This document shows positions 36,742 through 37,148 of a stretch of DNA of 64,000 nucleotides, piece after piece. This DNA comes from an uncultured Mucispirillum sp. GTDB lineage: Bacteria > Chrysiogenota > Deferribacteres > Deferribacterales > Mucispirillaceae. The notes beneath the pieces were generated by a model, which worked only from the letters and a program-made list of their open reading frames with translations, was not told where the DNA came from and ran no database searches. The stretch's first letter is position 1, and each line of letters begins with the position of its first letter. The translations under genes were made by a program, and so were the position numbers. The stretch lies in assembly GCA_944323205.1 (NCBI GenBank), contig CALURO010000008.1, positions 42,660-106,659 of the forward strand, given 5' to 3'.

Positions 36742-36895
36742 TTAGTATCAATAATAACATAAGATTATTATAATCTATGGCTCATATGCAATTAAAAAAC
36801 ATTGTTAACATTTATAAAAATATTTATATTTTTTAAACAAAGCAATATTAGGATACTTTCAATAGAACAATGAAGTGTTGCAAGTAAAATTATAA

Positions 36896-37111
36896 CTGGT
36901 GGTACCCCATTTTTTTATTAAAAAATGCTATAGTTATTTGATAATATATGTAAGAATAGAAATAATCTCAGGTAACTGTCATTCAGAGCCTGCGATAGTA
37001 GGCGAAGAATCTTATAATGTTCTAGTTAGTAAAAATTATATACTCTTCGGCTCCGCTAGCACTTCGCATCAAGGTGACATAAAATGTTGTAAAAAAATGG
37101 GGTACCACCAG
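36896..37111. mobile_element. 216-bp MITE (IS4/IS10-like ends) containing a REP-like hairpin
   Basis: Perfect 22-bp TIR CTGGTGGTACCCCATTTTTTTA; 9-bp direct repeat AAATTATAA at 36887-36895 and 37112-37120. Confidence 0.88.
36976..37078. repeat. REP-like unit, inverted relative to 20366-20460
   Basis: CTGTCATTCAGAGCCTGCGATAGTAGGCGAAGAATCTTATAATGTTCTAG is the reverse complement of the 3' part of unit B. Confidence 0.9.
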
Positions 37112-37148
37112 AAATTATAAATATAATAAGAAAAATATATTTTGCTGT

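Follow-up and report, generated by a model that had tools for sequence, protein, structure and literature searches.

In a 64-kb stretch of DNA from an uncultured Mucispirillum sp. [quoted passage not shown] The core of the element is a pair of inverted hairpins of the repetitive extragenic palindromic (REP) type. At a probability of roughly 80%, we favour the explanation that this MITE is non-autonomous and belongs to an unclassified IS4-like insertion sequence (IS) of Mucispirillum, and that the REP doublet in its core is copied passively.

An initial annotation, made from the letters of the window, had described an element of 216 bp, bounded by perfect terminal inverted repeats (TIRs) of 22 bp and flanked by an exact 9-bp target-site duplication (TSD), with no transposase inside. 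All of these observations were reproduced at 36887-37120, where the element is organized as follows.

36887-36895, no strand: left copy of the TSD, 9 bp, AAATTATAA; the orthologous empty site in genome G007 holds a single AAATTATAA
36896-36917, plus strand: left TIR (TIR-L), CTGGTGGTACCCCATTTTTTTA; its initial 19 nt are identical to the left end of an IS relic at G000:C9:74338, and 1 position differs from a full IS on contig L082
36918-36976, plus strand: left subterminal region, A+T-rich, with loose homology by alignment to ~65 nt of the IS left end; kept in all left-type ends
36977-37011, plus strand: REP-like unit A, TGTCATTCAGAGCCTGCGATAGTAGGCGAAGAATC, with a TGTC tag, an outer stem of 4 bp, the internal loop AGA/GAA, a 6-bp inner stem and a GATA loop
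37012-37040, no strand: spacer of the REP doublet, 29 bp, TTATAATGTTCTAGTTAGTAAAAATTATA; doublets and arrays that lack TIRs have homologous spacers between their A and B units
37041-37079, minus strand: inverted REP-like unit B, whose tag-proximal half is mutated from GTCACTCAGAG to GTCACCTTGAT
37080-37089, no strand: short linker that joins unit B to the right TIR
37090-37111, minus strand: right TIR (TIR-R), a perfect reverse complement of TIR-L
37112-37120, no strand: right copy of the TSD, 9 bp, AAATTATAA, a direct repeat of the left copy

Within the window, and with up to 3 mismatches allowed, the TIR occurs at these 2 sites only, against 0.00 expected from 100 shuffles. The sole open reading frame (ORF) in the element is a spurious 73-aa frame with a GTG start (36899-37120). 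Folding of the element as single-stranded DNA gave a z-score of -7.3 relative to shuffles. A scan of the element, and of a related copy at 20.4 kb described below, against Rfam with permissive thresholds returned no credible RNA family. Separately, CAGAG...CGAAG was considered as a hammerhead-like motif and rejected, since inspection by eye showed a misfit to the CUGANGA/GAAA core.

The initial annotation had made its proposal depend on the existence of other TIR-bearing elements and of an allele lacking the insertion, and both were found. A BLAST search of G000 with the 216-bp element gave 79 matches, of which 7 are full-length with 96-100% identity, while the others are either older copies, ~200 bp in length, or longer variants with 341-544 bp. 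Sorting all TIR cores in the genome by the sequence that follows them yielded 43 left-type and 44 right-type ends, and so approximately 45 elements. TSDs are present at the exact TIR boundaries in 18 of 28 paired copies, with lengths of 8 (2 copies), 9 (8 copies), 10 (4 copies), 11 (2 copies) and 12 bp (2 copies), and they are all A+T-rich. The reported 9-bp duplication is therefore correct for the element in the window, but across the family it is only the modal length in a range of 8-12 bp. (A 2.3-kb candidate bounded by a weak pair of TIR matches, C3:76970-79275, was rejected as a member of the family, as it contains ordinary genes.)

Comparison with related genomes provides direct evidence of movement. 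In the sister species G007, the locus reads ...GCAAATAAAATTATAAATATAATAA..., with one AAATTATAA and no element, and is thus a precise empty site. The locus is likewise empty in G001, and in the closest relative, G004, it is occupied by a copy that differs at 2 of 216 positions. Empty-site queries were also reconstructed for 16 copies, and seven of these insertions (C1:146548, C1:209381, C6:1578, C6:156961, C11:27811, C14:45357 and C7:18669) have alleles that align unbroken across the junction in G004 and/or G003, G005 and G008. Another copy, C1:184872-185087, is nested inside a further copy of the family, in a unit A, with the TSD TGAATGACAG, and relatives commonly have the host sequence without this interruption.

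Two observations on these loci stand apart from the question of movement. At the site of the 408-bp copy C7:18669-19076, the complete-genome congener G008, which has no match to the MITE itself, carries an insertion of ~164 bp with an 11-bp flank overlap (G008:C1:2064657-2064822). In the region G000:C6:155.7-157.2 kb, two MITE copies have flanks that match G005:C59 at 98-100% identity, compared with ~90% at other loci, which suggests a recent exchange of this segment between Mucispirillum species.

All short copies align to a single plan: TIR-L is followed by ~59 nt of subterminal sequence and unit A, a 29-nt spacer then leads to unit B in inverted orientation, and ~10 nt of linker connect this unit to TIR-R. 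Unit A follows all 43 left-type ends, and unit B all 44 right-type ends, so the REP sequence is not, as had been supposed, a cargo special to the copy in the window. The same regularity bears on the idea that the REP units are not contents of the element at all, but targets preferred by the IS or MITE when it inserts. Such preferences do exist, as all nine copies of ISRm22, of the IS4 family, lie in REPs (Tobes and Pareja 2006, PMC1525189), and the nested copy just described did insert into a unit A. The units are nevertheless found inside the TIRs, at fixed distances, in every element, and this fixed position largely refutes a target-site effect. Moreover, the duplicated targets are otherwise plain A+T-rich sequence, and no REP unit was found at 16 loci with full-length IS ends (in G001, G004, G005, G010 and L082). 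We consider this explanation very improbable.

The broken B unit (GTCACCTTGAT) is common to the young copies of 216-217 bp, while the near-identical copy G000:C10:39991-40206 retains an intact B. The latest burst, of 6-7 near-identical copies, therefore came from a master in which B was already broken. It follows that an intact REP is not needed for movement, as expected if the transposase sees the TIRs alone.

Since the element encodes no protein, we looked at which IS shares its ends. G000 contains a 1046-bp IS relic (C9:74338-75383), in which a TIR pair surrounds two ORFs of 84 and 210 aa. The 210-aa ORF corresponds to the C-terminal part of a DDE_Tnp_1 domain (the fragment scores 22.2-23.5 bits), and this relic is the only DDE_Tnp_1 match and the only homologue in the genome. 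A search with the joined ORFs led to a 405-aa protein, P0001, which is 95% identical and belongs to a cluster of 229 sequences. P0001 is encoded by the single ORF of a 1379-bp IS (L082:1358-2736) on a 207-kb metagenome contig, and this IS has the TIRs CTGGGGGTACCCCATTTTT and a 10-bp TSD, TAATAATTAT. For P0001, Pfam DDE_Tnp_1 (PF01609) is on record, and the motif YFKRWSIEDSYRFMK, which fits Y(2)R(3)E(6)K, can be read directly in both P0001 and the relic; the definition of Y(2)R(3)E(6)K reportedly goes back to De Palmenaer and colleagues in 2008. An autonomous partner, as the initial annotation had expected, thus exists on the L082 contig with the same TIRs, but in the genome under study it survives only as a relic. 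Relative to the full IS, 333 bp are missing from the relic; the missing part includes LYLDGGDF and VLDRGYD, which we take to contain the first two catalytic aspartates. Without these, the transposase is dead in this genome. The 210-aa form of the relic recurs on 21 contigs in public records and is thus fixed in this species. In contrast, intact IS copies are present in other Mucispirillum, and many contigs of G001, G005 and G010 end in IS ends, which indicates a multi-copy IS that breaks these assemblies.

The lineage of this IS is less easily named. Relatives of P0001 with 416-471 aa in other Deferribacterales match DDE_Tnp_1 at 46-53 bits (cut-off 23), and public records list them simply as ‘transposase’ or ‘hypothetical protein’. 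In NCBIfam, models of the IS4 family score best, followed by IS701, with 54.2 bits for transpos_IS4_2 (cut-off 152) and 50 bits for IS701_2 (cut-off 250). A structure of the Tn5 transposase is available in the PDB, and no PDB sequence matched our transposase at E-values up to 1. No tblastn match to it was found in the plasmid collection. We use the label ‘IS4-like’ because of the domain, the motif, the CTG ends and the range of duplication lengths, and we regard the partner as an unclassified IS4-like lineage of Deferribacterota. Membership of the IS10/IS50 subgroup, implied by the description of the element as ‘IS10-like’, is not supported, given the TSDs of 8-12 bp (10 bp in the IS copy), the absence of a PDB match and scores below all curated IS4/IS701 models. 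The partner is not demonstrably IS10-like.

These data fit a simple route of dispersal, whose biochemical steps we take from what is known of the family. The 405-aa DDE transposase would bind TIRs of 19-22 bp (CTGG[T/G]GGTACCCCATTTTT), excise the element and paste it into A+T-rich DNA via a staggered cut of 8-12 bp, mostly 9, and repair of this cut would produce the flanking direct repeat. Most likely, IS ends became joined to a REP doublet at some point, and the doublet would then have been copied passively each time the MITE transposed. As only an internally deleted relic of the IS is found in G000, the family is probably stranded here unless transposase is resupplied.

Several points weigh against this explanation. 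Mobilisation by the P0001 transposase is inferred from identical ends and matching TSD lengths. Homology to the IS outside the TIR is limited to the left arm, where the first ~65 nt of the MITE resemble the IS left end, and the right arm shares the TIR only. The G000 assembly lacks an intact transposase, although seven copies share 96-100% identity; this means that the burst is older than the deletion in the IS, or else that an intact IS is unassembled or was lost. A tree of the doublets (A, spacer and B) is poorly resolved and places TIR-borne doublets in at least two groups. It requires 5 label changes, only 2 of which are forced by supported branches, so that a single capture is not resolved, and the direction of descent between REP and MITE is not proven. 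Finally, most of the ‘free’ units occur within longer repeated mosaics that could include decayed MITEs.

We searched for the REP units themselves with the pattern GTCAYTCWGAG-(6-30 nt)-GAAGARTC, which is strict, so that diverged units are missed by the counts. It matched 197 units in G000, while a reversed control pattern matched 0. A T precedes 197 of 197 units, resulting in an unpaired TGTC tag. Each unit can fold so that an outer stem of 4 bp is followed by an AGA/GAA (3x3) internal loop and then by an inner stem, 2-7 bp long, which is variable but self-complementary, as in GC-GAA-GC, GCCTAC-GATA-GTAGGC and GCTAGTG-GAA-CACTAGC. The common inner sequence of B units, GGGAGC[C/T]TGCGACC (29 units), forms no clean hairpin. 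The outer stem is ATTC/GAAT in type A (124 units) and ACTC/GAGT in type B (72 units), and 1 unit is mismatched. The stem therefore starts with AT...AT in unit A and with AC...GT in unit B, a compensated change at position 2. After the stem, units end in a CTT/CTA tail (TTA or TAT after the final C). The exact sequence of the unit A in the window, TGTCATTCAGAGCCTGCGATAGTAGGCGAAGAATC, has 24 occurrences genome-wide.

Of the 197 units, approximately 100 are found next to the ends of MITE copies. The other ~97 occur as singles, as doublets and in arrays like bacterial interspersed mosaic elements (BIMEs), which alternate B and A with two spacer types (e.g., C2:46945-47478). G000 contains 34 strict doublets, and the A-B spacers of TIR-less doublets are homologous to the MITE spacer but far more varied. 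Among 12 congeners, each genome has at most 29 units compared with 197 in G000, an excess given as at least sevenfold. Mucispirillum genomes with no match to the MITE still hold units (21 in G003 and 12 in G002), and the genomes G033, G053, G055 and G056, which represent other Deferribacterales genera, have 45-89 units each and no homologue of this transposase. Since units are present both in MITE-free Mucispirillum and in transposase-free genera, the REP family is older and more widespread than the MITE. (The units in these four genomes have the form GTCAYTCTGAG-hairpin-GAAGARTC, with highly variable, self-complementary inner stems.)

The initial annotation had seen inside the element an inverted copy, with a diverged far arm, of a REP unit at 20.4 kb. 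The presence of REP sequence stands, in the form of the intact unit A and the inverted, half-degenerate unit B, but its counterpart is something other than a REP unit.

20168-20541, minus strand: older, 376-bp member of the MITE family, which agrees at 348 of 375 positions with the intact 375-bp copy G000:C13:12505-12879

From the left-type end, this copy consists of TIR-L, the subterminal region, A, inverted B, A, a module X, the head of a B unit and TIR-R, and in the TIR its mutations are limited to the outermost bases. Its REP units are at 20303-20337 (minus strand), 20365-20397 (plus strand) and 20427-20461 (minus strand). Judged by this alignment, the 20.4-kb ‘REP unit’ is a decayed, older and larger copy of the MITE family and not an independent REP. 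Module X (GTCACTCAGACGAGCGGTTTATGCGAGGACACTTTTTCCCG..., ~100 nt) has ~100 BLAST matches genome-wide and no Rfam match.

This reassignment raises the question of whether the relationship might be the reverse, with the MITE as the source of the REP-like units, such that A and B arose as its internal hairpins and the TIR-less units are fragments of decayed or rearranged MITEs. As well as the 20.4-kb copy, the position of about half of all units next to MITE termini would fit such a history, as would the excess of units in this species over its congeners. In addition, three more ‘free’ doublets are identical to doublets of the 375-bp variant, and nearly all free units occur in repeated spans of 150-900 bp. 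However, neither the TGTC units of the four genomes that lack a transposase homologue nor the units of MITE-free G003 and G002 are explained in this way. Furthermore, free doublets form long branches with diverse spacers, while TIR-borne doublets form clusters with near-zero branch lengths, and the tandem B/A arrays have no traces of TIRs. We therefore judge it quite improbable that the MITE gave rise to the units, and for G000 taken alone it is unlikely that all REPs are MITE debris.

If the MITE instead acquired its units, a REP doublet might have used a mobility mechanism of its own to enter a MITE or IS that already existed and held no REP, as opposed to the joining of IS ends around a resident doublet by deletion or recombination. 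A comparison of copies with and without the REP, as the initial annotation had envisaged, has no REP-free MITE copies to draw on: a search of G000 for such copies gave only the IS relic, a 43-bp stub of two TIRs and variants with degenerate units. As REP-free TIR pairs are limited to the relic and the stub, no REP-free progenitor of the MITE is apparent, which argues against entry. In addition, we found no gene for a REP-associated tyrosine transposase (RAYT) and no REP-flanked nuclease gene in G000. Specifically, there is no match to PF01797, the Y1/RAYT family, in G000 or in the REP-rich genomes G033, G053, G055 and G056; no gene in G000 is recurrently flanked by inverted units; and no GIY-YIG nuclease in G000 is boxed by REPs, since its GIY-YIG genes are one of UvrC size (616 aa) and one of 298 aa that is not flanked by units. 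On the other hand, REP-bearing segments without TIRs have been gained or lost between species, so some TIR-independent process alters REP loci, and the longer MITE variants have gained extra A units and other modules inside their TIRs. The TIR-less gains that we examined are messy, with long diverged duplications, and are not clean insertions. Overall, we regard entry of a REP into an existing element as rather unlikely, though less so than descent of the REPs from the MITE. The 43-bp element (G000:C11:41490-41532) consists only of two abutting TIRs (CTGTTAGTACCCCATTTTTTTGTTAAAAATGGGGTACCACCAG) and has no TSD; it may represent a stub left by a deletion or a remnant of the excision type.

Passive copying of the doublet could have a wider consequence. 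REPs with CGTC or TGTC tags and no dedicated transposase have been reported in distant phyla, and how they spread is an open question of that survey (Di Nocera et al. 2013, BMC Genomics 14:522, PMC3733652). The published tag variants are CGTC, TGTC and CCTC, and Deferribacterota are absent from the published list. We tentatively suggest, while holding it to be somewhat less probable than its converse, that hitch-hiking on MITEs is a real amplification route for such REPs, because this genome has 197 units compared with at most 29 in congeners, about half of its units are in MITE copies or remnants, and each species-specific insertion delivers a ready-made doublet. The idea that hitch-hiking accounts for this species' REP excess agrees with the counts but is unproven. 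What the empty sites and TSDs do prove is that a cut-and-paste DDE element takes a TGTC-REP doublet to new sites in a RAYT-free genome, and the species is a natural case of a sharp rise in REP copy number. If hitch-hiking were to apply generally, the patchy abundance of tagged REPs across bacteria could partly reflect which IS captured them.

The units share many features with the published CGTC/TGTC REPs, namely an unpaired 4-nt tag at one end of the palindrome, an A-T pair at the first stem position, a short unpaired tail, frequent inverted dimers and the lack of a dedicated transposase (PMC3733652). However, the published REPs have a continuous stem of 8-9 bp, a loop of 4-5 nt and a CCA-like tail, while here the stem is split and the tail is CTT/CTA. 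The published stems have complementary A-T residues at both the first and the second position, as in unit A, while unit B has C-G at the second stem position. Half of the units ride in a DDE-type MITE. A further resemblance is to the REP doublets forming hairpins (REPINs) and BIMEs that are associated with RAYT (TnpA-REP; Bertels and Rainey, PMC3337134; E. coli BIMEs): units pair in inverted orientation around a spacer that is conserved, and in tandem arrays two kinds of unit alternate, A and B here like Y and Z in E. coli, together with two kinds of spacer. Unlike REPINs and BIMEs, our units have no GTAG tag and no accompanying Y1/RAYT gene, and their demonstrable movement is via DDE-type TIRs with target duplications, while RAYT-type movement makes none. 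The earlier proposal that the element is a composite of two parasite classes thus holds in that a DDE-type MITE is combined with REP palindromes, but these are not classical GTAG/RAYT REPs.

As a MITE, the element is mechanistically standard. Passenger interiors are already known from the IS231-derived MIC231 cassettes of Bacillus cereus, which are MITEs mobilised in trans by the cognate IS. Like the trans-mobilised bacterial MITEs RUP (with IS630-Spn1) and Correia/NEMIS (Delihas 2011, PMC3184786), our family is short and non-coding, has the TIRs of a lineage IS and TSDs of matching length, is present in tens of intergenic copies that differ in presence between close relatives, and has a strongly folding interior. 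The differences are that the interior is an independently occurring REP doublet instead of a shrunken IS, and that the partner is an unnamed IS4-like lineage that is dead in this genome. Modular interiors also occur in the BrickBuilt MITE of Porphyromonas gingivalis (PMC4596501) and in pneumococcal BOX elements, which contain other repeat modules in variable number; these are tandem minisatellite or box modules, while here they are tagged REP hairpins that also live independently. With members of the IS4 family (IS10, IS50, IS231 and IS4), the partner IS shares DDE_Tnp_1, Y(2)R(3)E(6)K, CTG ends, a single ORF, a size of ~1.4 kb and TSDs within the range of 8-13 bp. It differs from them in falling below all NCBIfam IS4/IS701 cut-offs and in having no sequence match to the Tn5 transposase or another solved chain, and from IS10 and IS50 in its variable TSD length, which is fixed at 9 bp in these. 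In the literature searched, we found no description of a DDE-type MITE with a constant core of a tagged REP doublet, and no description of these repeats in Deferribacterota; full-text searches with sequence words of the units retrieved unrelated primers only. Modular or passenger-interior MITEs and REP-targeting ISs are already known. It is the composition that is unusual, and while the MITE as such is ordinary, its make-up is of some, modest interest.

The analysis also defines an unclassified IS4-like lineage of Deferribacterota and has practical uses for Mucispirillum genomics, as the repeats are markers of breaks between contigs, of synteny breakpoints and of intergenic regions that change fast, and as they contain spurious ORFs that are liable to be called by annotation.

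The element in the window is located between the convergent ORFs 36280-36741 (plus strand) and 37181-38521 (minus strand). Between these genes there is also a palindrome, AAAAAAGCAGGTGTTACACCTGCTTTTT, at 37147-37176, which looks like a shared bidirectional terminator, although a simple terminator scan gave no call. As the MITE lies between the stop codon of the upstream gene and this hairpin, it is probably part of the 3′ untranslated region of that gene.

Further repeats were observed elsewhere in the genome. Between BIME-like REP arrays on C2, a repeat of ~500 bp (G000:C2:46448-46945 and 47478-47972) contains a small hydrophobic ORF (MIYENHITFILCVLVLAIIIFCIKK) after G+C-rich, apparently structured sequence, and could be a module like type I toxin-antitoxin systems. 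A 303-bp repeat mosaic (G000:C2:14108-14410) lies exactly at a synteny breakpoint, and in G004, G005, G003 and G008 the sequences on its two sides are found on separate contigs or far apart. At G000:C6:50980-51170, there is a species-specific, REP-bearing insert of ~170 bp without TIRs, on either side of which there are diverged duplicates of a terminator-like hairpin (GGGGGCA[A/G]ATACTG) and of upstream sequence. Finally, the intergenic repeat region at G000:C10:53930-54530 and its counterparts on G005:C8 and G004:C14 have flanks that are 99-100% identical, and yet the region occurs in three lengths, 283, 489 and 683 bp. The step corresponds to a 206-bp element bounded by direct repeats of ~19 bp (aaaacttaatagcttatct). 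G005 has no copy of this element, G000 has one and G004 has two; it is a different small mobile or duplicating module.

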